Assembly: GCA_951812955.1 (NCBI GenBank)
Contig: OX638340.1
Location: 3,680,001-3,744,000, forward strand
DNA: 64,000 nucleotides
Direction of reading: 5' to 3'
From: an uncultured Gemmatimonadota bacterium
GTDB taxonomy: Bacteria; JAAXHH01
Positions 3,126-62,016 of this stretch are shown here, piece by piece; the stretch's first letter is position 1; every line of letters begins with the position of its first letter. Position numbers and translations under genes: made by a program. Below the pieces are notes generated by a model. That model was given only the letters and a program-made list of their open reading frames with translations, had not been told where the DNA came from and did not search any database.

Positions 3126-3167
3126 CACCCCGGTGATTCGGATCTACAATAATTGGATACCAGTTCT

Positions 3168-17729: not shown

Positions 17730-17741
17730 GTTGGGAACTCC

Positions 17742-19994: not shown

Positions 19995-20768
19995 ATGAAC
20001 GGCGCCGAAATCGTACGTCGGTACGAAGAAGATGGTTACGTCGTCGTGCCCGGGGTCATCGACAGCGAGCTGACCGCCGAGGCGCAGGGACATATCGAGT
20101 GGATGGGAGAGAAACACCCCGATGTCCGCCCCGAACAGTACCATCACCACCTGATCGTGGACGATCCGTTCTGGATACGACTTTGCACCGACCCTCGGCT
20201 CATCGACGTCATCGAACCGTTCCTGGGTCCCGATATCGCGCTCTTCGCGGCGCACTACATCAGCAAGCCGCCCCGGGACGGGCAGCCCGTACTCTGGCAC
20301 CAGGACGGGAACTACTGGCCGCTGGAGCCCATGGAGGTCATCACGATCTGGCTGGCCGTGGACGATTCGAACCCGGAAAACGGATGCATGCGGGTCGTCC
20401 CCGGCAGCCACCGGGACCAGAACCTGTTCAAACACCGTGCTTCGGACGGGGAAAACGTGTTGCGTTCGGAACTCGATCTGAAGGTGGATGAATCCACTGC
20501 GGCGGACGTCGTCGTGCCGGCGGGCGGCGTTTCGCTGCACGATCCCTACCTGATTCACGGCTCTGAGGCCAACCGGTCCGACCGTCGGCGATGCGGGTTG
20601 ACCCTCCGGTATATCCCCACGACCACGCGTATAAAGCGCGAGAACTTCCCGGCCTACCTTTGCCGCGGCAGGGCGGTGGAGGGCATCAACCACTATCCCC
20701 CGCTTCCCCGCTTCCGTGCCGGCGAACACTATCCCTTTAACGGGTGTGACCGGCCGCCGTGGAACTGA
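19995..20768 (+). CDS. Phytanoyl-CoA dioxygenase (PhyH) family Fe(II)/2-oxoglutarate oxygenase
   Basis: MNGAEIVRRYEEDGYVVVPGVID...WHQDGNYWP...HGSEAN shows the PhyH family pattern with an HxD...H facial triad. Start was chosen at the internal Met (the ORF opens at 19824). Confidence 0.8.
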   Translation: MNGAEIVRRYEEDGYVVVPGVIDSELTAEAQGHIEWMGEKHPDVRPEQYHHHLIVDDPFWIRLCTDPRLIDVIEPFLGPDIALFAAHYISKPPRDGQPVLWHQDGNYWPLEPMEVITIWLAVDDSNPENGCMRVVPGSHRDQNLFKHRASDGENVLRSELDLKVDESTAADVVVPAGGVSLHDPYLIHGSEANRSDRRRCGLTLRYIPTTTRIKRENFPAYLCRGRAVEGINHYPPLPRFRAGEHYPFNGCDRPPWN

Positions 20769-31466: not shown

Positions 31467-32567
31467 CTATGTCCGCCCTTCAGCTGACCAGGAGTCGAAG
31501 GGGTTGCCGTTTTCAGCGAGGGGAAAAGCGACCCGCGCACCCGTGATGTGGGAAAGATGCGCGCCCATGGCCATCTCGATATGTCGGCGGGCCGTGCGCG
31601 CATGGCAAAGTTCGTATTCGGGTTCCCTGCCCTCGATGAGATCCATCATGGACCTCGCCATGCGGTGATGGGCGTTGATCCATTTCTGCCCGCCCGAAAC
31701 CTGTTCGTGGGCGAGCACTTCCCATCGATCGTCGTCGAAGGGCCGCGGGTTCGAGTGGGGATGGAAATAGATATCCGGACCATCCTGCGTGGGGCCGGGC
31801 AGGATGAGCGTCCCGGCGGTCCCGTGGATATCGATGCGATAGGGATTCTCGATACCGTCACCCGCGAAGGATTCGAACTCAGCGTTGAATCCGTCGAACT
31901 GGTAATGCGCCCATATGCCGTTTCCCGCGGAGGTGCCCATGCCGAACAGGCCTTCCTTCCGGTCGATCGGTCCGGCCGTCCGGCCGTCCTGCGTGATGAT
32001 CGCCTGGCACCACGACGGTTCGCCGAAAAGCTGCCACAGGAAATCGAAGAAATGGGGGTAGAGATCGATAAACCACTGGTCTCCCCCGTTTTCGCCGCCG
32101 AAACCATACATGCGCGCCCAGCGCGGCTCCCCGATCCCTCCGTCCCGGATCATCGGGATGGCCTGGCGCTGGATTTCAGGCCGTCCCCGCCAGGGGTGGG
32201 CCATGATCAGCAGGACGCCTGCCTTGTCGCAGGCCTCCACCATGGTATCTACTTCGGCCGGGGTCCGCGCCAGTGGCTTTTCCGCATACACGTGGACGCC
32301 CAGTTCGGCCGCGGCCAGTACCATGGCGAGGTGGTTGCTCATCTCGTGGGTGGCCAGGACGACGATGTCGAGCTTCTCGTTCTCCAGCATCTCCGTGTAC
32401 CGGGCGTACCCCTTCTTCGCGCCGGTCCGTTGCAAGGCGGCCAGCCTTCCCTCTTCGACCGGATCGGCGAGTGCGGAGATCTCGGCGCCTTCCACGCCCA
32501 CGAATGCCTGGTCCAGAGAATGTCCATAGTCTCCGCAGCCGGTGTGCCCGATTATACCGATTTTCAA
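31467..32567 (-). CDS. Gfo/Idh/MocA family oxidoreductase
   Basis: MKIGIIGHTGCGDYGHS...EKP Rossmann N-domain plus the GFO C-domain. Confidence 0.8.
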   Translation of the reverse strand: MKIGIIGHTGCGDYGHSLDQAFVGVEGAEISALADPVEEGRLAALQRTGAKKGYARYTEMLENEKLDIVVLATHEMSNHLAMVLAAAELGVHVYAEKPLARTPAEVDTMVEACDKAGVLLIMAHPWRGRPEIQRQAIPMIRDGGIGEPRWARMYGFGGENGGDQWFIDLYPHFFDFLWQLFGEPSWCQAIITQDGRTAGPIDRKEGLFGMGTSAGNGIWAHYQFDGFNAEFESFAGDGIENPYRIDIHGTAGTLILPGPTQDGPDIYFHPHSNPRPFDDDRWEVLAHEQVSGGQKWINAHHRMARSMMDLIEGREPEYELCHARTARRHIEMAMGAHLSHITGARVAFPLAENGNPFDSWSAEGRT

Positions 32568-32634
32568 CGCCGTGCTCCTGTTCTATTCGTCCCGATGTAT
32601 ACTTGGGGACCGCGATCATTGGTAGGGACCGCGA

Positions 32635-32964
32635 TCAGACAAAGACCATGCGCTCGGCCTGGATGATGAATACCTGCGCGCCGCCCACCATGGTCGTTAC
32701 CGCCTCGCCCAGACCGAGCGCGTCGAGATGGGTGCCGATCTGCGCGACATCGATGGCTTCCTCCCGGGCGTGGCAGTGGTTCTCGATGAGTTCGAGCACG
32801 GGAGGTACGCGTTCGTCGTCCACCCCGATCAACAGGGTGACGTTGCCCGCACGCAGGAATCCGCCCGTGCTGCCGATCTCGGTGAACCGGAAATCGTTGT
32901 CGATCAGCGCATCGGAAAGATGCCGGATATCTCTCTTGTTGACGATAGCGATGAGGAGTTTCAT
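32635..32964 (-). CDS. PII-like cyclic-di-AMP receptor DarA/PstA family (DUF970)
   Basis: [50 protein letters not shown]...VGGAQVFII aligns closely by eye to B. subtilis DarA ([50 protein letters not shown]...VGGATVFVM). Confidence 0.8.
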   Translation of the reverse strand: [109 protein letters not shown]

Positions 32965-32992
32965 GGCGCGCCTCCTGTTCCCTGTGTCTGTG

Positions 32993-34339
32993 TCACGACG
33001 TAACCGATTCGATCGCTTCTCCGGCTACGTTAATCATCCGTTCCATCTCTTCGGAGGTGACAACCAGCGGGGGAGCGAAATTCACACTGTCCCCCCGGCA
33101 ACGTGTATAGACACCGTTTTCGAGCATCTTCTTCACGATGCGTGCTCCAGTTTTCAACGCTGGATCGTAAGGCTTCCGGGACGCGGGGTCTTCCACCACC
33201 TCCACGGCCGCCATCAGGCCGATGCCGCGGATATCGCCCACGTGCGGCAGCGACCGCAGCGAGCCCAGACCGTCGATGAGTGTTTCGCCCATTTTCCGGC
33301 TTCGATCGATGAGGCCTTCACGCGCTATGAGATCGATGTTCGCCAGACCGACGGCGCAGCAGGTCGGGTGGCCCGAATAGGTGAAAGAATGGTTCCACTT
33401 CCGGTCCTCGGGCGCGTTTTCGATGCAATCGTGTATCTCGTCCGAGACGATGATGCCTCCGAGCGGCACGTACCCGCTGGTCACCCCCTTGGCGAAGGCA
33501 ATGATGTCCGGCTCGACGCCCCAGTGGGAAACACCGAACCAGTGGCCAATGCGGCCGAAGCCTGTGATTACCTCGTCGGCGATCAGGAGCACGTCGTATT
33601 TCGTGCAGATTTCCCGGATCCTGGGCCAGTAATCCTCCGGCGGCACGATGACCCCGGCGGCGCCCTGCACGGGTTCGCCGATGAAGGCGGCCACCGTGTC
33701 GGGACCTTCCCTCAGGATCGCCTCCTCGAGGGCACGCGCGCCCGCCTCGCCGCATCCCACACCGGGTTCCACCGGCCTGTAGTGGTACGGATAGGGCGCG
33801 TCGATATGTACAAACCCCGGAAGGCTGGTCGCGAAATCCGCCCAGTAGGCCTCCAGTCCGGTGGCGTTCATGGCGCCGATGGTCACGCCGTGATAGGCGT
33901 GTGTCCTGGATATGATCCTGGTTTTTTCCGGCCGGCCGGCACGTTGCCAGAAATAGCGGGCCGTCTTGATCGCGCTGTCGTTGGACACCGCCCCGCCGGA
34001 CGTGAAAAAAGTGTAGTTCAGTGATCCCGGCGCCAGTTCCTTCAGTCGGTTCGCGAGGCGGACGGCCGGGATGTTCGTCGCCCCCGCGTAGCAGGAGAAA
34101 AACCCCAGATCAGTCATCTGGTCCGCGGCCGCGGAGGCCAGCTCGCGGCGGCCGTGGCCGACGTTCACGTTCCAGAGGCTCGAGAGCCCGTCGATGTAGC
34201 GGTTGCCCTCGATATCGGTCAGCGTAGACCCCTCGGCGCGTACGCAGACCAGGGGCTCGTCATGATCGACGTGGTGCTGCAGCGGATGGATCAGGTACGC
34301 GTCGTCCCTCAGCAGTTGGTCGCGGTCGCCGTAGGTCAT
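32993..34339 (-). CDS. Class III aminotransferase (omega-transaminase family)
   Basis: 448 aa with FTSGGAVSNDSAIKTA, ADEVITGFGRIGHWFG and FAKGVTSGYVPLGG (PLP-lysine region) motifs. Confidence 0.85.
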   Translation of the reverse strand: MTYGDRDQLLRDDAYLIHPLQHHVDHDEPLVCVRAEGSTLTDIEGNRYIDGLSSLWNVNVGHGRRELASAAADQMTDLGFFSCYAGATNIPAVRLANRLKELAPGSLNYTFFTSGGAVSNDSAIKTARYFWQRAGRPEKTRIISRTHAYHGVTIGAMNATGLEAYWADFATSLPGFVHIDAPYPYHYRPVEPGVGCGEAGARALEEAILREGPDTVAAFIGEPVQGAAGVIVPPEDYWPRIREICTKYDVLLIADEVITGFGRIGHWFGVSHWGVEPDIIAFAKGVTSGYVPLGGIIVSDEIHDCIENAPEDRKWNHSFTYSGHPTCCAVGLANIDLIAREGLIDRSRKMGETLIDGLGSLRSLPHVGDIRGIGLMAAVEVVEDPASRKPYDPALKTGARIVKKMLENGVYTRCRGDSVNFAPPLVVTSEEMERMINVAGEAIESVTS

Positions 34340-35247: not shown

Positions 35248-36198
35248 ATGAAACCCCCTTCGGCCGATTCCCGTCCCATGCCGGTTCTCGTGGGTCCTAC
35301 AGGCGCTGGCAAGACCGCCGTGGGTATCGAACTGGCCCGGCGAAACGGCGCCGAGATCGTTTCGGCGGATTCCCGTCAGATCTACCGTTACATGGATATC
35401 GGTACGGCCAAGCCCACGGCGGAAGAACGGGCCAGGGTACGGCACCACCTGGTGGATATCGTGGATCCGGACGTCCGTTTCAGCGCAGGGGAGTATGGCC
35501 GCCGCGCCCGTGAAACGATCCATGAGCTTGCCGTCCGCGGCGTGCCGGTCCTCGTGGTCGGTGGCGCGGGACTGTACATAAAGGCGCTGATCGAAGGGTT
35601 CTTCGAAGCACCGGAGATCCCGCGTGAGTTCAGACGCCGTCTAGCGGAAGGATATCGGAAACGGTCCTCGGCAGCGCTGCATCAGCGGCTTAAGGAAATC
35701 GATCCTGCGTCCGCCGGGCGCATACATGAGAACGACCGGCAACGAATCGAAAGGGCGCTGGAAGTCCACGACGCGACAGGCGCGACCCTGACTTCCTGGT
35801 TCGCAGGGCAGGTTCAGCCGCGATTCCGCAAAACGCGTCTCATCGGGTTGCGGCGGGACCGCGCTGCCCTTTACGCGAGAATCGACGCCCGGGTAGAAAA
35901 AATGATCGAATCAGGCTTCGAAGCGGAGGTCCACGGCTTGATGGACCGGGGATATGGAGTTGGAACCCATGCCCTGGCGACGTACGGTTACGCGGAAATG
36001 CTGAGGTGCATCCTCGGCGAGCTGGATCCGGAAGATGCCGTTTCGACCATACAACAACGGTCGAGGCAGTACGCTAAACGCCAGCTGACCTGGTTCAGAC
36101 AAACCGAGGGTATCGATTGGATTACCGTGGACGACGGAGAAGATCCGGCCGACACCTGCGAGAAGATCATCCGGACGTTCCCGGATCTGCTACTTTAG
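35248..36198 (+). CDS. miaA: tRNA dimethylallyltransferase
   Basis: P-loop VGPTGAGKT, and SADSRQIYRYMDIGTAKP is the MiaA signature. Confidence 0.9.
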   Translation: MKPPSADSRPMPVLVGPTGAGKTAVGIELARRNGAEIVSADSRQIYRYMDIGTAKPTAEERARVRHHLVDIVDPDVRFSAGEYGRRARETIHELAVRGVPVLVVGGAGLYIKALIEGFFEAPEIPREFRRRLAEGYRKRSSAALHQRLKEIDPASAGRIHENDRQRIERALEVHDATGATLTSWFAGQVQPRFRKTRLIGLRRDRAALYARIDARVEKMIESGFEAEVHGLMDRGYGVGTHALATYGYAEMLRCILGELDPEDAVSTIQQRSRQYAKRQLTWFRQTEGIDWITVDDGEDPADTCEKIIRTFPDLLL

Positions 36199-38010
36199 GA
36201 ACAGCAGTTTCCGGGTCACTTCGGACCGCGTCCCGGCCTCTCCTGTCGTCATACGGCAGAAATAGACCCCGCTGGCTACCCTTCTTCCCTCGTCGTCTGT
36301 CCCATCCCAGGTCGTGATGAACGTGCCCTGCGAATGGACCCCGTCCACGAGCGTGCGGACCTTCCGGCCCCTCACATCGTACAGGGCAAGCCCGACGTCC
36401 CCCGACCGGTCGACTTCGTACCGGACGGTGGCGGGTCCGCCGCTCAGATAAAAGGGATTCGGAAACGTGGTGAGGGATGCGGCGATCGGACGGGAAGCGC
36501 CGGTAAGCCCGGGATCGAAGGTCGCAGAATAGGCGTATTCATATCCGGCGCCTGTGCGTTCGAGCGATGCCACCACGAGCATGACGGTCTCGTACCGCGT
36601 CCAGTCCGGCACCTCGATGGTGACGCTTCCCCTGGTCGCGGGAACCGTCATCACCGAGTCCGCCGCGCCGCTACCCTCCGCGCCGCTACCCGCCACCGAA
36701 ACCCCCCAGGCTCCGGTTATGCCCGTGAATTCGATACGCAGGCCGCCATGCAGGGAGGAATCGGGCACAAAGAGTATGTAGTTCGCGGCGAGGTGTTCCG
36801 GGTAATGACCAGCGGGGATCTGTGGTCCGTCGAACTGTAACCGGTCGGAAGCGCCCGGAAGTACAGGCTCGTGCAGGTCGCTCAGTTCGACCGGGGGATA
36901 GGAGGCGCCTTCCTCGTAGTAGCGTTCCGCGTCGGCCCGCATATCGGTGAAGACGTTCCATGTCGTGAATTCCTGGAAGGCGGATGCCAGGTCGCTGCCG
37001 ACGCTTCGCAGTCCCTCGTCGATGGCTTCCAACGCCCGGCTCGTCTCTGCCCGCTCCCAGATGATACGGATCAGGTCCCTGTCGAACCGCTGCTCCAGGA
37101 ACAGCGGCCAGAGCACACCCGCGTATTCGTGTTCCCCGTTCGAGGCATCCAGCGCAAGCCATGGTTCGGTCAGGAACCCGCTGAACGACGGCAGGTAGGT
37201 AAGGTAATCGTCGACCTCGTCATAGACCTGTTCTTCGATCCACACGGCGCTTTGTTCCAGCCAGAAAGCGGCTTCCCCTGCGTCGTAGCCGAACTGAACG
37301 GCGTGGAAATACTCGTGGGCGATCGTGATCCGCAGCAGATCGAGCGCCTTCTCCACCGACCTGCGGGATTCGACGAAATCGTTATCTACGACGATGTACG
37401 AAGGAAGCGCTGCCCCGGTCGTAATCGCTTCCGGGCGGGTATAACCACTGAACTGGCTTGGGAGATCGACAATATAGACGTCGTATAGCCCGTCTCCGCC
37501 ATCGTCCGAATCCATCTCCTCGTATAGATCGTGGTACTGATAGTCCGTCGGCGGTGGGCGGTAACCCAGTTCTTCCACGATTACGCGGCGGGACTCTTCC
37601 AGGAACATCCCGCACTGCCGGACATATTCGGGAACCGTGCCGGTGTCCGCGTCTTCCAGTTCAGGCCAGCCTGCGCCGGGCCGGTCTTCCGTCGTGGTGA
37701 CGTACCAGATTTTGAAATGTCCGCCGGGGCTGACATGGTATTCAGGCTCGACCGTGTAGGAATGGCCCAGGTCGCCCGTGCGATTCCCTTCGCCGGGCAC
37801 GGTGGGCCGGCCCACTGTAACCTGGTCCGGACGGTGGGGCCTGGCGGCAATCCCGTCCGGCTGAGAATGGGCGAATGGATGGGCGTGCAAAGTTCCGCAC
37901 CGCTGCGTAGGGGGAGCCTGGGCATAAACGGCGCAGTGGGTGACCGTTCCAGCGACAAAGGTCAGGAATAATCGCTTTAAGAACGGAAGGGATGGAAAAC
38001 TACAATCCAT
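36190..38010 (-). CDS. Secreted HExxH zinc metallopeptidase with T9SS C-terminal sorting domain
   Basis: HEYFHAVQF...E is a zincin motif. The C-terminus (TFPNPFYLSGGPATVRYEV...GLALYDVRGRKVRTLVDG...GVYFCRM) is typical of the type IX secretion CTD. A signal peptide is present at the chosen start MDCSF. Confidence 0.75.
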   Translation of the reverse strand: MDCSFPSLPFLKRLFLTFVAGTVTHCAVYAQAPPTQRCGTLHAHPFAHSQPDGIAARPHRPDQVTVGRPTVPGEGNRTGDLGHSYTVEPEYHVSPGGHFKIWYVTTTEDRPGAGWPELEDADTGTVPEYVRQCGMFLEESRRVIVEELGYRPPPTDYQYHDLYEEMDSDDGGDGLYDVYIVDLPSQFSGYTRPEAITTGAALPSYIVVDNDFVESRRSVEKALDLLRITIAHEYFHAVQFGYDAGEAAFWLEQSAVWIEEQVYDEVDDYLTYLPSFSGFLTEPWLALDASNGEHEYAGVLWPLFLEQRFDRDLIRIIWERAETSRALEAIDEGLRSVGSDLASAFQEFTTWNVFTDMRADAERYYEEGASYPPVELSDLHEPVLPGASDRLQFDGPQIPAGHYPEHLAANYILFVPDSSLHGGLRIEFTGITGAWGVSVAGSGAEGSGAADSVMTVPATRGSVTIEVPDWTRYETVMLVVASLERTGAGYEYAYSATFDPGLTGASRPIAASLTTFPNPFYLSGGPATVRYEVDRSGDVGLALYDVRGRKVRTLVDGVHSQGTFITTWDGTDDEGRRVASGVYFCRMTTGEAGTRSEVTRKLLFLK

Positions 38011-38123
38011 GTCGTTCGGCCGGGCTCCATGGACCACCAACCATCAGCCGTTCGGACTGATACACCGAATCGAATGCACTGAGCATAGCGATCATGCGTG
38101 GAGGAATCGTATCGTCCTGGTAA

Positions 38124-38930
38124 TCAGCTTCCTGTTGTCTCTTCGCGCTGGTGTTTAGGCGGAATGGGGAAGCGCTCCGCGTAGTGGGACAGATCCTTGC
38201 CCGAGATCAGGTCTTCCAGGATATCTTCGTTCTTGTCCCAATGCTGATCGTTCGGGTGGACGTCCAGCGCAATGCGCCCCTCAGTGTCGATCAAATAGGT
38301 GACGGGAATCCCGTAGCGTTGGTTGGTCTTGGCCCGAAACTGGCGTTCCCAGTAGCCGCGGAAGTCGAAAAGGGAGGTTGCGCTGTTCATATAATACGCG
38401 ATGACCTTTTCGTTCCGCGCTGCGATCCCGGCCATCTTGTCCGGATCGTTTTTCTCCGATTCGTCGGAAGGACGAACCAGTCTGGCCGCTTGTAGACCTT
38501 GCTTGAACAGATCCAGTCCGGGACCGAAGCCTTCCTCGAACTCACTGGGATCGAGGGGTTTCTCGTCCTTGTAGAATTTGTTTACGCCGACGAACAGAAA
38601 GTCGATTTGACCTTCGTACTTCTTCGCGATGTCCATCAGGGGTTCCGCATCCCTGATGCAGGGCGGGCACCACCAGGCCCAGAAGTTCACGAACAGGGGC
38701 CGGCCCCGGAAGTCCTCCAGGGTCACCTTCGTTCCATCCAGGGCGTACACTTCGAAGTTTGGCGCCATATGGCCGATCTCGGTGCCGATCGCGACGGCCT
38801 CGCTTTCGTTTCCGCCAATCGGTTCGCTTTCGTTTTCACCGGGTGTCCCGCTGCACGCGAATCCGAGTGTTCCGGCAAGCAGGCCCGGCATCAGTAGCGT
38901 CCGTACCGTTTCTTTCCACAAGCGCCGCAT
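38124..38930 (-). CDS. TlpA-family thiol:disulfide oxidoreductase lipoprotein (thioredoxin fold)
   Basis: Lipobox LGFACSG. WAWWCPPC redox motif. There is a long insertion relative to the minimal TlpA fold. Confidence 0.75.
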   Translation of the reverse strand: MRRLWKETVRTLLMPGLLAGTLGFACSGTPGENESEPIGGNESEAVAIGTEIGHMAPNFEVYALDGTKVTLEDFRGRPLFVNFWAWWCPPCIRDAEPLMDIAKKYEGQIDFLFVGVNKFYKDEKPLDPSEFEEGFGPGLDLFKQGLQAARLVRPSDESEKNDPDKMAGIAARNEKVIAYYMNSATSLFDFRGYWERQFRAKTNQRYGIPVTYLIDTEGRIALDVHPNDQHWDKNEDILEDLISGKDLSHYAERFPIPPKHQREETTGS

Positions 38931-39050: not shown

Positions 39051-39683
39051 TCACAGGCCGCCAAGTTCAGTTTCGAATGCGCCAACCGCCACGAGTATAT
39101 CCGGCTGGGACAGCACGGCCGAGATCGCCGCGACGCCGTGCGCGCCCGCTTCAAGGCACTGTTTCGTGCGCCCGGGGGTCACGCCGCCCAGGGCAAATAC
39201 GGGGATCGTCACCGCGCGGACCGATTCCGATAGCGCCTGCAGTCCCCGGGGCGGACCATAGGCTGCCTTGGACGACGTATCGTAAACCGGGCCGAAGGTG
39301 ATGAAGTCGGCCCCTTCCGCTTCCGCCGCCCGCGCTGCTTTCAAACTGTGCGTCGAGCGGCCGATCAGCGTACCCGCCGGCAGACGGTCGCGCGCCGTCC
39401 GCGCCAGGCGGACCGGCATACTCCGTTCAGGCAGGTGAATACCCTGTGCCCCGCAGGCCACGGCGACCTCCGGATTGCCATTGATGAACAGTGCGGGCCG
39501 AAGCGTGTCGAGTTCGCGCTGAACCCTCCGGATCAACGCAAGGAGTTCGGGGGTTTCGAGGTCCTTCTCCCTGATCTGGACCGCGCGGACGCCGGCGCGG
39601 CAGGCCTGGCGCAACGCCAGGGCAAGGGGCCGTCCGGCACACCGGGTTCGGTCGCTGATCAGATAGAACCTGAAGTCTACCAT
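39051..39683 (-). CDS. thiE: Thiamine-phosphate synthase
   Basis: ThiE family pattern (FRFYLISDR...VQIREKD...IGRSTHS...GADFITFGPV), last gene of the thi operon. Confidence 0.85.
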   Translation of the reverse strand: MVDFRFYLISDRTRCAGRPLALALRQACRAGVRAVQIREKDLETPELLALIRRVQRELDTLRPALFINGNPEVAVACGAQGIHLPERSMPVRLARTARDRLPAGTLIGRSTHSLKAARAAEAEGADFITFGPVYDTSSKAAYGPPRGLQALSESVRAVTIPVFALGGVTPGRTKQCLEAGAHGVAAISAVLSQPDILVAVGAFETELGGL

Positions 39684-39688
39684 GCAGC

Positions 39689-40477
39689 CTACTTCGAGGA
39701 CGAATGGATCACGCCGCTTAGTGGACTGGACGCGGACGCATAGGCCTTCATGGGTATCCTGCCCGCTTCGTAGGCAAGGCGTCCGGCTTCAACCGCCTTG
39801 CGCATGGCGACGGCCATTTTCACCGGATCCCGTGCACCGGCCACGCCGGTATTCATCAGTATGCCGTCGCAGCCCAGCTCCATGGCGACGGATGCGTCGG
39901 AAGCGGTGCCGACGCCTGCGTCGACGATAACGGGTACCTGGCTGTTCTCGACGATGATGGCGATGTTGTGCGGGTTGCGTATGCCCAGGCCGGATCCGAT
40001 CGGCGCGGCCAGGGGCATGACCGCGACACAGCCCGCTTCTTCGAGCTTCTTGCAGATGATGGGATCGTCAATCGTATAGGGCATGACGTTGAATCCCCGA
40101 TCCACCAGGATGCGGGCGGCTTCCAGGGTGGCTTCGTTATCCGGGAACAGGGTCTTTTCATCCCCGATGACTTCGAGCTTTACCGTATCCGCGCCCAGTG
40201 CCTCCCGCGCCAGTTCGCAGGTCAGTACGGCGTCCTCGGCCGTATAGCATCCGGCCGTGTTGGGCAGCAGCTCGTACCGGTCCCGGTCGATATAATCGAG
40301 CAGCGACTCTCCCGAGGGATCATTCAGGTCGATTCGGCGAATGGCCACCGTAACCATGTCCGTACCGCTGACTTCGAAAGAATCCCGCATCAGTTCGAAA
40401 TTCGCGTATTTCCCCGTCCCGAGAATCAATCGGGATTTCAACTCCAATTCGCCTATTTTAAGGGCGCCCATGTTCAT
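39689..40477 (-). CDS. thiG: Thiazole synthase
   Basis: [19 protein letters not shown]...[15 protein letters not shown]...[13 protein letters not shown] are ThiG hallmarks. Start was chosen at the internal MNMGALKI after the thiS stop. Confidence 0.9.
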
Positions 40478-40583
40478 CTGCTCCTTTGCCTGTACAGACC
40501 TGGCCCGCAAGTCGTATTCTGGTTTAGTGCTGCGTGCTGGATCTTCCGCAGCGGCGGTGCTGCGCACGGGATGGTTGCAGCCG

Positions 40584-40784
40584 TTAACCGCCCGCAACCG
40601 CTCGAATCACTTCGACCACGTCATCGTCGGATAGCATTGCCGTCCCGTGATCCTTCCTCGGGACGACCGCTCCGTTCAGGGCCACTGCGGTCCCTTCGGA
40701 AGGCACGCCAAGCTCTTTCAGCAGGTCGGCGATGCTCGTGTCGCGGGGCAGATCCCGGGTTGTCCCGTTAACTGTCATGTTCAT
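40584..40784 (-). CDS. thiS: Sulfur carrier protein ThiS
   Basis: 66 aa ending in the GG C-terminus (VIRAVAGG), between thiO and thiG. Confidence 0.8.
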
Positions 40785-41922
40785 CGTTCGTCTCTCCGGT
40801 TCGAGCGGCGTAGAACCGATCGGGCAGAAAGGGCCGCATGATAGGGGGAACCCGATCGTGCAGGATTGCCTCGGCGATCAGGTCTCCTGTGAGCGGTGCA
40901 AGCAATATGCCGTTACGGCCGTGCCCGGATGCCGCGTATAGGCCGGGCGTACCCATGGCGCCAAGCACGGGCCATCCGTCCCGCGCCACCGGCCGCAGTC
41001 CCGACCAGGTGGAATCCAGCGGCCAGGATTTCAGACCGGGCGCAAGTTCGAGCGCGCTACGGAACAACTGCATGACTCCACCCAAAGTGACTTCGTCTCG
41101 AAACCCGGCTTCCTCCACGGTAGCGCCGATGATCAGCCGTCCGTCCGAACGGGGAACCAGGTATGCGCCGCCGGTGTATATCGTGTGCTTGAATGGTGTC
41201 GCCGCGCCCGTCCGCAGTGCGAGTATCTGGCCGCGCACCGGCCTAATGGGGATTCGGTGTGCGGCCGGGATGCCTTCCAGGTAGCGGGCCCGGCAGCCCA
41301 TGGCGTTTACTACCGTTGGCGTGTTCCACAGGCCGTCCGTTGTATCGACCCCGGCGACGCGATTTCCGTCCAGTACGATTTTCCGTGCGGTGACGCCTTC
41401 ACGGATTACGCCGCCGTTTAGACGAACGGATTGCGCCAGGGCCGCAACGACGTCCCTGTTTTCTACCTGGTGATCGTCCGGGTAGCGTAGCGCCATGCGG
41501 ATGCGGTTGGAAAGATCCGGCTCGAGTCGCCTCGCCTCCCGGACGGTCAGTTTCTCAACGGATACGCCATTCCGCAGGTGCCGTTCATACCGGGTCTCGA
41601 GCCGTGCCTGTTCACCGCCGCTCAACGCCGGATAGATCATCCCCGTGGCGTTGTAGTCTATCGGGCGGCCGGTCTCTTCCCGGAGGGATTCGACGAAACC
41701 GGCATAGCGCTCCAGTCCGGCCCTGCAAAGGATGAAATAAGGATCGGGCTCATCGAATTCGCAGTGCGGCGCCAGCATGCCCGCGGCGGCCCACGACGCG
41801 CCACGGCCGGTTCGGTGCTGCTCGAGTACCGTGACAGCGCTTCCGGATTGACACAGCTGTCTCGCTATGGCCAGACCGATGATCCCGCCGCCGATGACCA
41901 CTATGTCCGATCGTTGCGCCAC
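40768..41922 (-). CDS. thiO: Glycine oxidase (FAD-dependent)
   Basis: DIVVIGGGIIGLAIA dinucleotide-binding motif and DAO-family length. First gene of the thiOSGE operon. Confidence 0.85.
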   Translation of the reverse strand: MAQRSDIVVIGGGIIGLAIARQLCQSGSAVTVLEQHRTGRGASWAAAGMLAPHCEFDEPDPYFILCRAGLERYAGFVESLREETGRPIDYNATGMIYPALSGGEQARLETRYERHLRNGVSVEKLTVREARRLEPDLSNRIRMALRYPDDHQVENRDVVAALAQSVRLNGGVIREGVTARKIVLDGNRVAGVDTTDGLWNTPTVVNAMGCRARYLEGIPAAHRIPIRPVRGQILALRTGAATPFKHTIYTGGAYLVPRSDGRLIIGATVEEAGFRDEVTLGGVMQLFRSALELAPGLKSWPLDSTWSGLRPVARDGWPVLGAMGTPGLYAASGHGRNGILLAPLTGDLIAEAILHDRVPPIMRPFLPDRFYAARTGETNDEHDS

Positions 41923-41944
41923 GGAACCTCGCCACTACGTCACC

Positions 41945-42062
41945 GGAAAACAAAAAGCCGTTTCGATCGGAAACGGCTTTGTCCGGCCGTTTCCCTACGC
42001 TGGTATAACCCAGGTCAGGTTCAAAGGGTCGTGATTCTCAGGCCCGCGAGGAGCCGCCCCTA
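41945..42062 (-). promoter_or_regulatory. TPP (THI-box) riboswitch with intrinsic terminator expression platform
   Basis: The minus-strand RNA reads GGGGCGGCUCCUCGCGGGCCUGAGAAUCACGACCCUUUGAACCUGACCUGGGUUAUACCAGCGUAGGGAAACGG. It carries the invariant CUGAGA, ACCCUUUGAACCUGA and CCAGCGUAGGGAA boxes. It is followed by the hairpin AAAGCCGUUUCCGAUCGAAACGGCUUUUUGUUUU, ~20 nt before the thiO start. Confidence 0.9.
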
Positions 42063-42148
42063 ACGGTAATATGGCAGTTTAAGAAAAGCGGATAGAGGTG
42101 TCAACGAATTCTTCCCGGTATGGATGCCCGGTGAGGTGGCCCGGCGGA

Positions 42149-44338
42149 TCAGACCATGCCGAAATACCGCCGAAACAGCCACTCGCCCGTGAGCAGGCAG
42201 ACCAGTACAGCCAACACGGCGGGATGGTTCCAGAACGAGACGGTGCGCGTCTCCCGAACGGTGACCTCGTCCATGCTGATGTCGTCGGCCAGGCGATCGA
42301 TTTCCGATGGGAGGTAGAATCCCCCGTCCGTCATATCGGCCAATTGGACGAGGAGTTTCCGGTTCATGCGCGTTCTCTCAAACTCGGCGCCGGCCTCGCC
42401 CACGACGAATCCACCGGCGTCCGTCCCGAGCGGGATGCCATTCAGCGCGGCGGTAGCTTCAAACGAATATGCGCCCGCGGGCAAAAACTGAAGGCGTCCC
42501 GCGTATCGACCGAGGCCCTGTCCAGTCGAAGAGAGGTCTAACCGGAACGCGCCTGCTTCGTCCTGCTCGGACCGAACCGTCACCGACAGATCGGCACGTT
42601 CGACCGGCCGGTACTGCTCGTCGTATACCTGACCGTCGAATCGAATCGATTCTCCGTCCACGTACTGCAGTTTATCCGATGCGACACGAATCCTGCGACT
42701 GCTCTCCCGCACGGTGACCCATCTGACGGCATTGTTCCAGAACCTCTCGTACGCCGCGTTGGTTCCGCCGCTACCCCACATCATAAGGTCCCATCGCCAC
42801 AGGCCATGGGCGGCCACGCCGAGCACGCTGCCCTGGCCGTAGCGATGCACGGCGATGACCGGTGCAAGCTCATTTCCGGTTCGCCATGTAGGATGTCTGG
42901 CGAGTACAGTCGCGCCAGGTTTTGCGCGCCCGACCTGGTTCATGCCGGGCAGGGGAGGCAATTCCATCCAGCGCCGTTCCGATTCGGCCGGGTCATCATC
43001 CAGGCGGGTGATCGGATGCGTGCCGCCGTCAGCCGTCAGTACCGGAACAAAAGACGCTTCCGTCATCCCTCTTGCCGCCGCGGCGATCCCGAATGGCATC
43101 AGATTACCGAGGGGCGTTCCGGCGTAACCGCCCATTTCAAAGCTGTTTGGGCCGCCGAACGCAATCAATCCGCCGCCCCTCTCCTCGACAAAGGACACAA
43201 GGTAAGGCGCCCATGGCCGGATGCGGTCATAGTCCACGCTGCCCAGCATTACGAGGTCATAGGAAAACCAATCCATACGTGAAGCGGGCATGGGTTCGGG
43301 ATAGGTCCGGCCGTCGGGCCGGAACAGGATACTCGTTACTTCCAGGTTGGCGTCTTTTTCCAGCGTTCGTCGCAGGAAACCCATGTCGGCGCGCGGGGCT
43401 CCCTCGATATACAGAACGCGTAAACCGGACTTCAACGCCTTGACCGTGAAGTCGCGTCGGTTGTTTCGTGCGGTGATCTCGCCCTCGAGTTCGGGAACTT
43501 CCACCTCGTACCGATGGATGCCCTCGGTCTCGGGAACGATATGGAAAACAACCGTCCGTTCCACTTCCTGACCATCCAGGGCGATTTCCTCACTCCGCAG
43601 GATACGGCCCTCTTCCCGCAAGGTGACGGGTACGCGCATACTGCCGTATCCACGTCCGCGCACGACGACTTCGACCGGGACGTTGCTTCCGGTGTATACC
43701 ACTTCATTGAACGTCAAATGGGAGATGCTGATATCCCGGACGCCTAACGTGTCGCCGATTCCCACCGTAAACAGGGGCAGATCGAGTGCCTCTGCGACCC
43801 GGAGCGGATCGCGTCCGACGGTGAAATTGCCATCGGTAACCAGGATGGCGGCGCCGAAACTGCCGGCGCCGAAACCGCCTTCAAGAGAGGACAGGGCGCC
43901 GCCGATGTCGGTGCCGGCGCCGTCGGTAGACAGGGAATCAATATCGCCCTCGGGCAAGGGCGACAGGTCCTCGGCAAACCGGTAACGATGGACGCGGTGA
44001 CGGGCTTCCAGGGTCTTCAACGCATCACCGGAAAGTACCGAGGAAAGCACTTCGTTTCGCGCTCCCAGGCGGTCCGTCAGTCCCATGCTCGCCGAGGTGT
44101 CGACGAGCACTGCCAGTCCGGGAGATTCGGTCCGTTCCACCAGCATGCGCGAAACGGGTTCGCTGAGAATCGCCAGAAGCACGGCGGCGGCCGCGATCCG
44201 TAGACCGACAAGCCCCCAGGCCGCGGCGGGCGACAAAAGGGTGAAGAGCCGCCGGGAAAGCCCGTAAATAAGGATACAGGCAAGGATGAAAGCGATGAGG
44301 ATCCAGGTGAGGGAATCCGCTTGGAAATCCAGGGGCAT
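42149..44338 (-). CDS. Membrane protein with N-terminal double-TM domain, VWA domain and C-terminal TM anchor (BatA-like)
   Basis: Two N-terminal TM helices. VWA-type MIDAS region (LVDTSASMG...ILVTDG). A GATase1-like/DUF4159-like middle region. A C-terminal TM helix. Confidence 0.6.
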   Translation of the reverse strand: MPLDFQADSLTWILIAFILACILIYGLSRRLFTLLSPAAAWGLVGLRIAAAAVLLAILSEPVSRMLVERTESPGLAVLVDTSASMGLTDRLGARNEVLSSVLSGDALKTLEARHRVHRYRFAEDLSPLPEGDIDSLSTDGAGTDIGGALSSLEGGFGAGSFGAAILVTDGNFTVGRDPLRVAEALDLPLFTVGIGDTLGVRDISISHLTFNEVVYTGSNVPVEVVVRGRGYGSMRVPVTLREEGRILRSEEIALDGQEVERTVVFHIVPETEGIHRYEVEVPELEGEITARNNRRDFTVKALKSGLRVLYIEGAPRADMGFLRRTLEKDANLEVTSILFRPDGRTYPEPMPASRMDWFSYDLVMLGSVDYDRIRPWAPYLVSFVEERGGGLIAFGGPNSFEMGGYAGTPLGNLMPFGIAAAARGMTEASFVPVLTADGGTHPITRLDDDPAESERRWMELPPLPGMNQVGRAKPGATVLARHPTWRTGNELAPVIAVHRYGQGSVLGVAAHGLWRWDLMMWGSGGTNAAYERFWNNAVRWVTVRESSRRIRVASDKLQYVDGESIRFDGQVYDEQYRPVERADLSVTVRSEQDEAGAFRLDLSSTGQGLGRYAGRLQFLPAGAYSFEATAALNGIPLGTDAGGFVVGEAGAEFERTRMNRKLLVQLADMTDGGFYLPSEIDRLADDISMDEVTVRETRTVSFWNHPAVLAVLVCLLTGEWLFRRYFGMV

Positions 44339-46040: not shown

Positions 46041-47180
46041 TCACCTGCGGCGTCGCCAGAGTATCAACAGGCCGACCGCGAGGACTCCCGCGCCCGCGCC
46101 GATCCACGAAGTATAACCCGTGGGAGAGGGAGATGCGGAGACCGCCGGCTTGATCGTGCAGAGCGAGGTGAGCAGTTCGACGGATTCGCTCACGGCCACG
46201 TCGCCGATCACCGTGAAGAGCTTTCCATCGTAATGCCTGCGCAGAATGGAATAGGGGCCGCGGTCCCACACGCGCACGTCGCCGAGCAGTTCGGGCGTAC
46301 CCTTGGGAGACATGTGAGACGCTTCGGAAGATGCGATCCGCTGGAAGAGCGAGATTCGCGAGAGGCCGTCGCTGTACATGAAATGCACGAGCGGCCGGCC
46401 GTGGTGCTGAATGACGCGGCGCTGCTGGAGGGCGAATCCCGGCGGAACGTAAACCGGGGCGTTCAATCTGAAATCCGCTTCCTGCTGCACTTCGCTGATG
46501 GATCCACAGGCAATGACCTGATTGATTTCGACGGACTTGCCCGTCCATTCCTCCGTAGCGAAGAGGTCCGGCGGGATAGACGGATCTTTTTCGAATTCCG
46601 TCAGGAAGAGTTCCTCGACGAGTACACCGGCCTCGTTGCGTTCTTCAGTCCGCATCACCAGGCCCGTTTCCTCGTCGATCCACGCCTTCATGGTCATTCT
46701 GCCGGGATGGCGGGGCTTGAAAGCCAGGACGGCCACCGGACGGTCGAGAAGCCGGTCGGCGCCGGTAATTTCGAGTTCGTAGTTGGTTTGAAGCAGATCG
46801 AGACTGCTGAACTCCAGGTTCATATCGAGCAGGTTGGAGTTCGACTGTCGGCGGTGCGAATAGAAGAGCGAGTCTCCCGAGGCCTTCCGCCGGTATATGT
46901 CGTCGTCCACGCGGATGATGACCTCACGGATGCGACCATCCGAATCGGGGATGTCGATGCGGTCCCGGTCAGGACGCTGATGGGTTATTCTCTGGACATA
47001 GCGGGTGGTGTCCCCCGCCGCGTTGAACCGCTGCTTCGTCATCGTGGCACGGTAGCTCACGCGGGCCGGAGCTTCCATGATCTTCTGGTAGGTTACATCC
47101 GGATCGACTGCGCGGACGGGAGAAGGGCTCGAAAGGCAGGCCGCGGCAACGAAACAGAGGAATACAGGTCGAAACATCAT
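46041..47180 (-). CDS. Periplasmic protein with C-terminal TM anchor, possible MucB/RseB-like (LolA-fold) partner of the anti-sigma factor
   Basis: Signal peptide, 379 aa. Ends in a hydrophobic helix followed by RRRR (SWIGAGAGVLAVGLLILWRRRR). The start lies 10 bp after the anti-sigma stop. The fold assignment is tentative. Confidence 0.4.
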   Translation of the reverse strand: MMFRPVFLCFVAAACLSSPSPVRAVDPDVTYQKIMEAPARVSYRATMTKQRFNAAGDTTRYVQRITHQRPDRDRIDIPDSDGRIREVIIRVDDDIYRRKASGDSLFYSHRRQSNSNLLDMNLEFSSLDLLQTNYELEITGADRLLDRPVAVLAFKPRHPGRMTMKAWIDEETGLVMRTEERNEAGVLVEELFLTEFEKDPSIPPDLFATEEWTGKSVEINQVIACGSISEVQQEADFRLNAPVYVPPGFALQQRRVIQHHGRPLVHFMYSDGLSRISLFQRIASSEASHMSPKGTPELLGDVRVWDRGPYSILRRHYDGKLFTVIGDVAVSESVELLTSLCTIKPAVSASPSPTGYTSWIGAGAGVLAVGLLILWRRRR

Positions 47181-47691: not shown

Positions 47692-48363
47692 CTATAGATC
47701 CAGGTATCCGGCGAGTCGCTTGGAAAGCACGCGCTTCAACTTGAGCCGTCCGTGATGCAGCCGGGACATCACCGTCCCTTCGGGACACTGAAGTATCTCC
47801 GCGATCTGCCGGTGGGAGAGACCTTCCAGGTCGAACAGCACGACAACGGTCCGGTGCCGCTCCGACAGGGTATCCAGCGCGGCCATAATGGACCGCTTCA
47901 ACTCAGCGTTCTCCAGCACCTCGTGCGGAGTTTTCTCTGAGGACGGCAGATTGGAAACTAGAAACTGCTTTCCGGTGCCGCCGTTCCGCCCGCCGTAATC
48001 CGAAAAGGAGTACATGCGGCGTCGGGCCTCCCGCTTGCGGTAGTTGATACACTTGTTGATCAAAATGCGGTATAGCCAGGTCGAAAACCTATACTGCGTG
48101 TTGAACCGTTCCAGCGTTCTAAACACTTCGAGAAAGGCGTCCTGAACGAGGTCGCGCGCGTCATCGTGGCTCGCGAGCATCTGGTACGCCACGGAATAGG
48201 CCTTCTCGCTGTATCGCCTCGTCATTTCGTCGAAGGCGGAGCCATCGCCTGATTTGGCCCGTTCCATCAACCTTCGTTCTTCTTCGCGCCGGTCTTCGCT
48301 CGCGCCCTGGACGGCCGGTCTTTTCCGTTCCGCTACCGAATGGATTTTGCTGACGGTGTTCAC
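47692..48363 (-). CDS. ECF-type RNA polymerase sigma-70 factor
   Basis: Region 2 (AYQMLASHDDARDLVQDAFLEVF...FSTWLYRILINKCINYRK) and region 4 (LSHRQIAEILQCPEGTVMSRLHHGRLKLKRVL). Confidence 0.9.
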   Translation of the reverse strand: MNTVSKIHSVAERKRPAVQGASEDRREEERRLMERAKSGDGSAFDEMTRRYSEKAYSVAYQMLASHDDARDLVQDAFLEVFRTLERFNTQYRFSTWLYRILINKCINYRKREARRRMYSFSDYGGRNGGTGKQFLVSNLPSSEKTPHEVLENAELKRSIMAALDTLSERHRTVVVLFDLEGLSHRQIAEILQCPEGTVMSRLHHGRLKLKRVLSKRLAGYLDL

Positions 48364-48491: not shown

Positions 48492-49469
48492 CTATGCAAG
48501 GCTGATTTCATTGGATTTCCGATACATCTCGAGTGCCTTGTCGAGCTGTCTGCTCTTGTCGTAGATCATGCCGAGATACCGGTACGCCTGTTCATTGCGC
48601 GGTTCATGACGGAGCAGGGTTTCGAAGTGCTCGATCGCTTCCGCATGCTTATCCACGTGACAGTATGCCTTGCCCAGTTGGAGATATACCTCCGCCTTCG
48701 ACCGGTCCACGTCCAACGCGCGGGAGAGTATCTTGATCGCTTCGTCGTAGATTCCGATAGTGATGTAAAGTACGCCGAGCTGATAGCAGGCCCGGTAAGA
48801 ATAAGGATCGTATTCCAGGGCGCTATGGAGGTCGGTCCTGGCATCCTCGAATTGTCCCATTTCCGCGTACAGCGCCGCACGGTCGACCAGCGTATCTATA
48901 TGTCCCGAATCGATCGCCAGGGCGCGATTGTAATGCTCACGCGCGGTTTCCTGGGCGCCGAGGCGGCAGTACATCCTGCCCAGACTGCCCATCGCGGCGG
49001 TGTGACCGGGATGCTGTTCGAGAATACGTCTGTACTGCTGGATCGCCAGTTCGGTTTTACCCTTATTCGCGAGGATCTCCGCCCGGTTCATCATCGCGGA
49101 GAGATCGTCGGTTCTGTTTTTTGGCGTTTCTTCGGCGTGTTGTTTCACCGTACCGGCAGATTCCGGCCTGGCAGGCTCTTCGGAAAGGGGCGACTGGCTC
49201 GCCACGGTGTCTTTCAAGGCATCGAAAGGAACGAAATGGGGAATGTTGCGGTCGTTCAGGCGCAATCCCACGTTGGAATTCAGATCTCGCGCCATGCGTG
49301 CTTTCCTGACTTTTACACTGAAGGCGCCGAACCGGTGGAGGTTCACTCGTTCGTCCCGGGAAATCGCCTCGTTTACTTCCGACAGGAACGCGTTGAGCAC
49401 TGCAGACACCCTGCGCCTGGAGACCTGGGTCCTGGATGCCACTTCGTTTACTAGCGATTCTCTGTTCAT
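48492..49469 (-). CDS. HU/IHF-type DNA-binding domain fused to C-terminal TPR repeats
   Basis: The N-terminal ~90 aa (MNRESLVNEVASRTQVSRRRVSAVLNAFLSEVNEAISRDERVNLHRFGAFSVKVRKARMARDLNSNVGLRLNDRNIPHFVPF) has the HU fold pattern. After a linker come at least five TPR motifs (AIQQYRRILEQHPGHTAAMGSLGRMY...). Confidence 0.7.
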   Translation of the reverse strand: MNRESLVNEVASRTQVSRRRVSAVLNAFLSEVNEAISRDERVNLHRFGAFSVKVRKARMARDLNSNVGLRLNDRNIPHFVPFDALKDTVASQSPLSEEPARPESAGTVKQHAEETPKNRTDDLSAMMNRAEILANKGKTELAIQQYRRILEQHPGHTAAMGSLGRMYCRLGAQETAREHYNRALAIDSGHIDTLVDRAALYAEMGQFEDARTDLHSALEYDPYSYRACYQLGVLYITIGIYDEAIKILSRALDVDRSKAEVYLQLGKAYCHVDKHAEAIEHFETLLRHEPRNEQAYRYLGMIYDKSRQLDKALEMYRKSNEISLA

Positions 49470-49706
49470 GGTGCTCCGGCTATGCTGAGGCGAAGCCGCA
49501 ATCGCCGTCGGGGAGCCCGTCCCGGCATGGCGACGACCGCCGTATATCGTGTTCTGCCAGTGACGTTTCAGGAAGGTCAAACGCTCGCACGCCTGGCCGC
49601 GTCATCTGGCTGTTAAGTATTATGGTCGTGATACCGAAAATCGGCCGTATCCTGCCGCATGTCAAGCAGGAATGAATGGACCGTGCGCTTATTGATCCTG
49701 CCCGGG

Positions 49707-60738: not shown

Positions 60739-62016
60739 CTACCGGCGAGTGTACCGCGCCAGGAGACTCGATATCTCCCGGGTCAGTTCGCTCGTCTTGT
60801 CGTCGCCGCACGAAAGCGTGCTTTCCAGCGCGTCCGCCAGGCCGGCGATCTCATCGCAAAAGGCCTTGTGTTCCTGGGCATGTCTTGCCAGGGCCGCGCG
60901 CAGATCAGCGAGGATTTCCACCGTCTTCGCACCGGGATCGACGGGATCCATCGTGGATGACGCTTGTTCTTCGTCTTCCCCTGCTTCCGCGTCATCCTCG
61001 GTTGCTCGTGCTGCCGTGTCTTCCATATCTTCCCCTGCTTCCGCGTCATCCTCGGTTGCTCGTGCAGATGCGTCTACCTCGTCTACCTGCGCCACTGCGT
61101 CATGCTCGTCTACCCCAGCCACCACGTCTTCCTCCGAAGCCCCGGTCTCATCACCCTCCGGGAATGCTTGCCCCTCGTCGGCGTATCCTATTGCGGATTC
61201 CGGGGCGGACACGGATTCCTGTCCTGGCTCGTCCGTCAAATCGGTCCGGTCGCCGGGTGTACCCTGACCTGCCGGTTCGGCGACGCCGCTGAACGAATAC
61301 GTATCAACGGCCTCCCGTGCATATAAGTCTCCGTCGACTTCCTCTGGCGCTTCATCCGCAATATCACCGTTGGTCACTACTCCGGCGGCCTCCACGGTCT
61401 CTGCAGTTTCCGCCTCGTCCCGCACTTCCTCGGCTTCGATTTCCTCTGGCGCTTCATCCGCAATATCACCGTTGGTCACTACTCCGGCGGCCTCCACGGT
61501 CTCTGCAGTTTCCGCCTCGTCCCGCACTTCCTCGGCTTCGATTTCCTCTGGCGCTTCATCCGCAATATCACCGTTGGTCACTACTCCGGCGGCCTCCACG
61601 GTCTCTGCAGTTTCCGCCTCGTCCCGCGTTACGCTGGCTTCGACTTCCCCAGGCGTTTCATCCGCGATATCAGTTCGTGTTTCCACTTCGGCGGCGTCCG
61701 CGGTCTCTGCAGTTTCCGCCTCGTCCCGGCCGTATACGGTTGCCGTCTCGTCGACAGACTCGGTTAAAGGCTCGGTATGGTCCGGCGCCCGGCCGTATTG
61801 CCGGCGCGGCGTACCGTTGGAATCCGGACGCTCCGGCGCCGGTTCGCCGGTCCGGGAATGCATAAACAGATCGATGGACTCCCTGGACACGAAGTATCTG
61901 CCGTCCTCCAGGTAGTACTCCAGCTTTCCTTCTACGCACATTCGCGTCACCTGGTCGGGCAACTGCTTCATCAAGTCCGCAGTTTCCAGCAAGGTCATCC
62001 ACTGCGTTTCCGCCAT
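60739..62016 (-). CDS. Excisionase-type HTH domain protein with long acidic tandem-repeat region
   Basis: The N-terminus (WMTLLETADLMKQLPDQVTRMCVEGKLEYYLEDGRYFVSRESIDLFM) fits the HTH_17/excisionase pattern. Then ~300 aa that are >35% D/E, containing 34-aa x3(+1) repeats EAETAETVEAAGVVTNGDIADEAPEEIEAEEVRD and 18-aa x2 repeats ARATEDDAEAGED. There is a helical C-terminal ~60 aa. Confidence 0.65.
   Translation of the reverse strand: MAETQWMTLLETADLMKQLPDQVTRMCVEGKLEYYLEDGRYFVSRESIDLFMHSRTGEPAPERPDSNGTPRRQYGRAPDHTEPLTESVDETATVYGRDEAETAETADAAEVETRTDIADETPGEVEASVTRDEAETAETVEAAGVVTNGDIADEAPEEIEAEEVRDEAETAETVEAAGVVTNGDIADEAPEEIEAEEVRDEAETAETVEAAGVVTNGDIADEAPEEVDGDLYAREAVDTYSFSGVAEPAGQGTPGDRTDLTDEPGQESVSAPESAIGYADEGQAFPEGDETGASEEDVVAGVDEHDAVAQVDEVDASARATEDDAEAGEDMEDTAARATEDDAEAGEDEEQASSTMDPVDPGAKTVEILADLRAALARHAQEHKAFCDEIAGLADALESTLSCGDDKTSELTREISSLLARYTRR
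60968..61066. repeat. 54-bp tandem repeat x2 within acidic protein gene
   Basis: The core cttcccctgcttccgcgtcatcctcggttgctcgtgc occurs at ~60975 and ~61029. Confidence 0.8.
61339..61741. repeat. 102-bp tandem repeat, 3 near-perfect copies plus 1 degenerate copy, within acidic protein gene
   Basis: The unit ttcctctggcgcttcatccgcaatatcaccgttggtcactactccggcggcctccacggtctctgcagtttccgcctcgtcccgcacttcctcggcttcgat starts at 61339, 61441 and 61543. A degenerate copy occupies ~61645-61741. Confidence 0.9.

Follow-up and report, generated by a model that had tools for sequence, protein, structure and literature searches.

The antiterminator/terminator model of TPP riboswitches has been set out in a review (PMC3020362). 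The same model was validated experimentally for the TPP riboswitch of the N. meningitidis thiC gene, in a study that called this transcriptional type of TPP switch 'a rare example' among Gram-negatives (PMC7237195). The thiM and thiC switches of E. coli act on translation initiation, and that of thiC also acts through Rho-dependent termination (PMC7237195). Switches of the B. subtilis type, such as those in the tenA and thiC leaders, use an RF00059 aptamer with OFF logic, build an anti-terminator and a terminator on the 3' strand of the P1 helix, and also govern genes of the thiazole branch. In B. subtilis these genes form the cluster tenI-thiO-thiS-thiG-thiF-thiD. Clusters of the thiOSGF/tenI kind have been described previously (PMC11223231).

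We analyzed a stretch of 64,000 nucleotides (64 kb; hereafter the window) whose minus strand carries thiO, thiS, and thiG followed by a fourth, thiE/tenI-like gene. The leader of this operon is very probably a TPP-sensing transcriptional OFF switch. It shares with the B. subtilis type the RF00059 aptamer, the OFF logic, the use of the P1 3' strand for anti-terminator and terminator, and control of thiazole-branch genes. It differs in that its P3a arm comprises only 3 nt, the operon is without thiF and thiD, and the host is an uncultured Latescibacterota-type bacterium with diderm markers. The N. meningitidis thiC switch likewise turns transcription OFF in response to TPP, independently of Rho and in a Gram-negative bacterium, as established by experiment there and predicted here; it governs thiC of the pyrimidine branch in another phylum, whereas the present one precedes thiO-thiS-thiG. 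With E. coli thiM and thiC, the leader has the RF00059 aptamer and the ligand in common, but an intrinsic terminator lies here between the aptamer and the Shine-Dalgarno (SD) sequence. The diderm markers encoded in the window are an RND pump (AcrB with HlyD and OEP), a TonB-dependent receptor, and RseB. The host is probably diderm, and the leader would therefore be another Gram-negative transcriptional TPP switch.

Since this is a textbook TPP switch, and a genuine one, whose aptamer was found by a standard annotation scan, the system is an ordinary one: it belongs to a kind already known and is no new kind. The value of the analysis lies mainly in annotation, namely of where the leader, the promoter, and the attenuator lie in a thiamine-thiazole operon from an uncultured genome of Latescibacterota type associated with sponges or corals, together with the prediction that this thiazole operon is shut off by TPP. 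No long-standing question is opened by it.

The TPP aptamer upstream of thiO

The whole window was scanned against all 4227 Rfam families at their gathering thresholds. The only match above threshold was RF00059 (TPP), which extends over 42071..41975 on the minus strand and covers the model in full length (positions 1-105 of 105). Its score of 69.9 bits (E 1e-11) clearly exceeds the gathering score of 54.3; a score under threshold had been named in the initial annotation as grounds for refuting it. When the leader alone was searched permissively (E ≤ 10), RF00059 was recovered with an E value of 3.8e-14, and no competing family was found; besides TPP, the list contained only a chance-level Thr-leader (E 3.2). 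On the result of this permissive scan, we rejected the idea of a further RNA element embedded in the leader, for instance an HMP-PP aptamer within the terminator.

The region reads UAUUACCGUUAGGGGCGGCUCCUCGCGGGCCUGAGAAUCACGACCCUUUGAACCUGACCUGGGUUAUACCAGCGUAGGGAAACGGCCGGACAAAGCCGUUUCCGAUCGAAACGGCUUUUUGUUUUCC on the minus strand. The structural core of the aptamer runs from P1 to P1 (42066..41987), and all five helices, P1 to P5, are formed with standard pairs. P1 consists of CCGUU (42066-42062) paired with AACGG (41991-41987). The remaining helices are P2 (AGGG/CCCU), P3 (GGCUC/GGGCC), P4 (CCUG/UAGG), and P5 (CUGG/CCAG), each of which was verified as canonical. The reduction of the variable P3a arm to 3 nt is tolerated by the RF00059 model. 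The initial annotation had placed the element at 41945-42062, an extent that stands except at its upstream end, where 42062 clips 4 nt of the 5' arm of P1 (42066-42062) and falls short of the covariance match, which reaches 42071.

The annotation had also reported the invariant THI-box elements on the minus-strand transcript. All of them were located in the sequence and in the RF00059 alignment: CUGAGA at 42041-42036, ACCUGA at 42020-42015, and GCGUAGGGAA at about 42000-41991. The junctions CUGAGA, ACCUGA, and GCGUAGGGA match the upper-case consensus of the model and are invariant in 20 aligned leaders. From structural knowledge of ligand contacts, we take CUGAGA to be the pyrimidine sensor, and ACCUGA together with GCGUAGGGA to be the pyrophosphate sensor. 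The aptamer lies on the same strand as thiO-thiS-thiG and immediately 5' of it, a position that is kept in 23 related loci. By every sequence-level criterion tested, it is a standard member of the RF00059 family.

Predicted promoter, terminator, and anti-terminator

A pattern scan revealed a sigma-70-like promoter at 42076..42104 on the minus strand, with TTGACA as the -35 element (42104-42099), a 17-nt spacer, and TAAACT as the -10 element (42081-42076), matching the consensus at 10 of 12 positions. The promoter ends 5 nt ahead of the RF00059 match, and the predicted transcription start lies a few nucleotides 5' of P1. On the other side of the aptamer, an intrinsic terminator was detected at 41947..41980 (-), consisting of the hairpin AAAGCCGUUUC-CGAUC-GAAACGGCUUU and a U tract. 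Its stem pairs AAAGCCGUUUC (41980-41970) with GAAACGGCUUU (41964-41954) over 11 base pairs, five of them G-C, around the loop CGAUC. The U tract, UUGUUUU, occupies 41953-41947, and its last U is 24 nt ahead of the thiO GTG. The strong hairpin and U tract that had been annotated some 20 nt before thiO are thus present between the aptamer and the start codon, and the designation of a terminator-type expression platform holds. The SD sequence GAGG (41930-41927) and the thiO start codon GTG (41922-41920) follow, together spanning 41920..41930 (-).

The predicted folds also contain an alternative hairpin at 41969..41994 (-), the anti-terminator, absent from the initial annotation, in which GGAAACGGC (41994-41986) pairs with GCCGUUUCC (41977-41969) over 9 bp with an 8-nt loop. 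GGAAACGGC contains the 3' strand of P1 and is the exact complement of GCCGUUUCC, which also serves as the 5' arm of the terminator. Anti-terminator and terminator are mutually exclusive because both use the GCCGUUUC strand, and the anti-terminator likewise excludes P1. As isolated hairpins, the two were computed to be isoenergetic, at -14.3 kcal/mol each. In the predicted MFE fold of a nascent transcript of 100-112 nt, the anti-terminator is present, and before the 3' arm of the terminator is made, all 8 nt of the 5' arm are computed to be paired upstream (P = 1.0). In the full leader without ligand, the equilibrium calculation gave -38.4 kcal/mol for the OFF state (P1 plus terminator) and -32.2 kcal/mol for the ON state, with a terminator pair probability of 0.99. 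Since equilibrium favors the terminator even without ligand, the ON state would have to be kinetically trapped during transcription. Kinetic trapping of this kind is accepted for transcriptional riboswitches.

A mechanism can be proposed on this basis. Transcription would start at the sigma-70-like promoter, a few nucleotides before P1. With little TPP present, the weak 5-bp P1 would stay unlocked, its 3' strand within GGAAACGGC would pair with the next-transcribed GCCGUUUCC as the anti-terminator, and RNA polymerase would read into thiO. When TPP binds to the nascent aptamer, P1 would be held closed, leaving GCCGUUUC unpaired up to the point at which GAAACGGC, its second partner, is transcribed; the GCCGUUUC/GAAACGGC terminator and its U tract would then form, and transcription would stop about 24 nt before the start codon. 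What the sequence itself shows is the family to which the aptamer belongs, a conserved promoter, terminator, and anti-terminator complementarity, and the identities of the genes; ligand binding, kinetic competition, and actual TPP-dependent termination at this locus we infer.

The chance occurrence of such an arrangement was estimated by shuffling the 61-nt platform 20,000 times with its dinucleotides preserved. A terminator of at least 8 bp with a U tract arose in 498 shuffles (2.5%), and an 8-nt complement to the P1 3' strand in 613 (3.1%); the two overlapped in only 2 (0.01%). Comparably strong terminator-like sites number only 7 in the 64 kb on both strands. A looser terminator pattern taken alone was not enriched (3 found in the 8-kb region, against 6.1 expected in its shuffles), and the argument therefore rests on the combination of terminator and complement and on its position.

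These numbers also bear on the idea that the hairpin and U tract are uncoupled from the aptamer and serve either to end transcription of the upstream 729-aa gene constitutively or as a general insulator. The hairpin does lie in the 226-nt gap that follows a gene on the same strand, and two sister leaders described below (L023 and L103) retain the same terminator with neither aptamer nor anti-terminator. However, a conserved promoter stands between the stop codon of the upstream gene (42149) and the hairpin, the 5' arm is the exact complement of the P1 3' strand in 24 of 24 TPP leaders, and the combination of hairpin and complement is as rare in shuffled sequence as stated above (2 of 20,000). 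We consider an uncoupled terminator very unlikely.

Conservation of the leader among relatives

A genome scan with ThiO yielded 19 loci at 78-97% identity, all from uncultured MAGs labeled Latescibacterota or 'Gemmatimonadetes'; the bin names of several suggest sponge or coral sources. The lineage of the host was inferred from these loci, the ThiO and ThiE-like proteins of the window having no identical sequence on record. RF00059 was detected in 19 of the 19 at the same offset, with 68-72 bits. In all relatives whose sequence extends far enough, the gene order is the same: the 729-aa protein, the leader, thiO, thiS, thiG, the thiE-like gene, a TlpA-like protein, and an MXAN_6640 protease.

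The leaders of these relatives and of the window were aligned (20 sequences). In both the -35 and the -10 element, 5 of 6 positions are invariant, compared with 3 of 17 in the promoter spacer. Little or no change was seen in the aptamer stems, the P1 strands, or the two arms of the terminator, whose 8-bp core is either unchanged or altered only from U-A to U.G. The loops vary: the P3 loop differs among the relatives, and no position is invariant in the loop of the anti-terminator (0 of 8) or of the terminator (0 of 5). When pairs were counted over the 20 leaders, 98.8% of the cells were paired in the OFF structure, which includes P1-P5, and 96.6% in the ON structure. Covariation in this set did not exceed that of shuffle controls, the only changes being U-A to U.G and gains of peripheral pairs. 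Covariation is uninformative either way here because the P1, anti-terminator, and terminator core stems do not vary. The pattern of invariant stems and variable loops is consistent with the structure, as a fit to it and not a proof. The frozen core is plausibly explained by a three-way pairing constraint that links the two P1 strands and the two terminator arms.

A metagenome scan and a protein search with wider reach added four leaders: L024 and L025 (57% ThiO identity), L104 (51%, from a Latescibacteria MAG), and L105 (47%). All four have kept the aptamer (69-76 bits) as well as the GAAACGG / CCGUUUC / GA(A/G)ACGG core and the U tract, and their promoters and spacers have diverged. The AACGG/CCGUU switch core and the aptamer are thus found 5' of thiO in 23 related loci of Latescibacterota type. 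Among the TPP leaders, 24 of 24 can form the 8-bp core of the anti-terminator (computed at -11.3 to -16.7 kcal/mol), and every one of the 24 has the terminator (-12.6 to -16.8 kcal/mol). Of 20 more distant thiO loci that were scanned (ThiO identity from about 36% to 66%), 14 have an upstream TPP aptamer. In the 12 of them at about 40% ThiO identity (L026-L054 range), which belong to other lineages, the aptamer directly adjoins the start of thiO or runs into it and no terminator is present, which corresponds to a translational-type platform. Of mild comparative interest is that the terminator design with its AACGG/CCGUU core is fixed across the lineage, in 24 leaders down to 47% ThiO identity, and that the thiO leaders of other phyla found in these searches have aptamers next to the start codon.

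These 12 leaders favor a reading in which the present aptamer, too, acts mainly or additionally on translation by hiding the ribosome-binding site of thiO, as in E. coli thiM, with the hairpin in a minor role. Gram-negative TPP riboswitches are, moreover, almost exclusively translational (PMC7237195), and the MFE fold of the whole 156-nt leader pairs CCUCGC in the P3 loop with GCGAGG at the SD. That pairing would destroy P3, however, and in relatives the P3 loop (CGCGU, UUGGU) and the SD region (GCGGAG, GCGGGG) change independently of each other; on these two grounds, sequestration of the SD by the P3 loop was rejected. In addition, the SD (41930-41927) is 57 nt past the 3' strand of P1 (41987) and lies 3' of the complete terminator, and the U tract and terminator arms are kept down to 47% ThiO identity although a purely translational switch needs neither. 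Action through translation is accordingly an unlikely account of this leader, for which transcriptional attenuation is the preferred reading.

A single species-level sister lineage has the operon and the terminator without a recognizable aptamer. L023 is a metagenome contig (MDTE01008031.1) with a ThiO 66% identical to that of the window, and L103 is its 99% twin from an independent JGI sample. In both, the operon thiO-thiS-thiG-thiE-like is intact. The leader (1310-1500) is homologous to and colinear with the one studied here and has the same TTGACA-17-TAAACT promoter, GCCGUUUC/GAAACGGC terminator, and SD/start context. RF00059 gave no match in it even at E ≤ 10: CUGAGA is deleted, GCGUAGGGAAACGG is changed to GGCUAGACGAAGGG, and the strand that would form the anti-terminator has disappeared. 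In the computed fold of the nascent transcript, the 5' arm of the terminator is free. Besides the terminator, the computed fold of the region (-45.3 kcal/mol, z -2.4) consists of two well-formed hairpins unlike those of the aptamer, and a candidate switching helix, GCCCC/GGGGC, overlaps with the terminator base. In the collections searched, no relatives of L023-type leaders were found between 99% and 70% ThiO identity. These leaders could represent a variant derived from a TPP riboswitch that senses something else or uses another switching helix, as opposed to a decayed relic, although we regard such a variant as rather doubtful.

L023 and L103 illustrate that the aptamer can be lost or remodeled while the operon stays intact, and the element in the window could by analogy be an evolutionary relic that has lost TPP binding. 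Its RF00059 score is nevertheless well over the gathering score, all ligand-contact junctions are intact, and almost no aptamer position changes among 20 species-level genomes whose flanking spacers differ. A relic is very improbable on this evidence.

Genes of the operon and of the surrounding window

The initial annotation had named the controlled genes thiO-thiS-thiG-thiE. The first three names stand on profile scores; the fourth does not reach its cut-off. The thiO gene (40768..41922, -) encodes a glycine oxidase of 384 aa that matches TIGR02352 with 330.1 bits (cut-off 250.8) and PF01266 with 255 bits. The family match starts at residue 7, and one relative, L002, has ATG at the position of the GTG start codon. 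The thiS gene (40584..40784, -) encodes a sulfur carrier protein of 66 aa (TIGR01683, 66.8 bits, cut-off 37.45; PF02597) and shares its first 17 nt with the end of thiO. In L010, L014, and L016-L018, ThiO ends 5-12 codons early (372-379 aa compared with 384-385); since the acidic C-terminal tail that overlaps the thiS start is absent in some relatives, it is dispensable or variable. The thiG gene (39689..40477, -) encodes thiazole synthase (PF05690, 371 bits, residues 48-292 of the ORF). The mechanical ORF begins at 40597, and the start is likely the ATG at about 40477, 3' of AAGGAG; thiG orthologues start at the same Met. The operon is tightly packed except for some 106 nt of untranslated spacer that separate thiS from thiG (window positions 40478-40583, -); in L001-L019, this spacer measures between about 50 and about 220 nt. 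None of thiC, thiD, thiF, and thiL was found within the 64-kb window.

The fourth gene (39051..39683, -) begins 5 nt after thiG and encodes a protein of 210 aa. It passes only the broad Pfam TMP-TENI family, PF02581, with 166 bits, and stays under both the ThiE equivalog cut-off (TIGR00693, 136.0 bits against 145.1) and the TenI cut-off (NF005819, 119.2 bits against 251). Its best solved relatives are, in order, P. furiosus ThiE, B. subtilis TenI, and B. subtilis ThiE. The protein and 18 clade orthologues were compared residue by residue with fragments of these relatives. At the sites of VNDD/VDDR and GQED/GPED in the ThiEs, the window protein and the 18 orthologues carry VN[GS]N and HLPE[RSG]x, so that two Asp positions of ThiE are TenI-like in the clade (MNGR and LPSGS in TenI). 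We take the Asp residues of VNDD and GQED in B. subtilis ThiE to be the Mg2+ ligands D93 and D112, and the His of FGHVFET in TenI to be the catalytic base H122. A full-text literature search found no paper giving Asp93, Asp112, or His122. The clade retains the ThiE-type Q-x-R-E-K motif, and in its FGPVYDT, Pro takes the place of the TenI His (FGHVFET), as it does in LGPIYPT of B. subtilis ThiE. The label 'thiE' is provisional because the protein is below the ThiE cut-off and has TenI-like residues at the two Asp positions. Within the ThiE/TenI family, it may represent a third functional type, in an operon whose transcriptional TPP switch may be fixed in a diderm phylum.

Directly 3' of the operon, a TlpA/ResA-like thioredoxin-fold protein is encoded at 38124-38930 (-), starting 120 nt after the fourth gene. 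Its co-transcription with the operon is possible, since no minus-strand terminator was found in the gap. The next gene, at 36190-38040 (-), encodes an HExxH metalloprotease of the MXAN_6640 family whose C-terminal tail is of FlgD-Ig / T9SS type.

On the 5' side of the leader, the 729-aa protein encoded at 42149-44338 (-) has no Pfam or NCBIfam match, and precomputed results for its homologues contain nothing beyond faint or weak matches to VWA and GATase1_like. The gene is found beside the thiO leader down to 47% ThiO identity. Farther upstream, a 362-aa protein (48492-49580, -) combines an N-terminal HU-type domain (PF00216, residues 38-126) with C-terminal TPR repeats; its gene adjoins those of an ECF sigma factor (47692-48363) and an RseB-like protein (46041-47180). 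Four long ORFs of 355-638 aa are also Pfam-less: the one at 32273-34024 (+) has no match at E ≤ 1e-3, and those at 1236-3152 (+), 19662-20729 (-), and 60739-62016 (-) have none at E ≤ 1e-5. Finally, a two-subunit TPP-dependent 2-oxoacid:ferredoxin oxidoreductase is encoded at 16809-19622 (-), 22 kb away from the operon, and consumes the cofactor whose synthesis the riboswitch is predicted to control.
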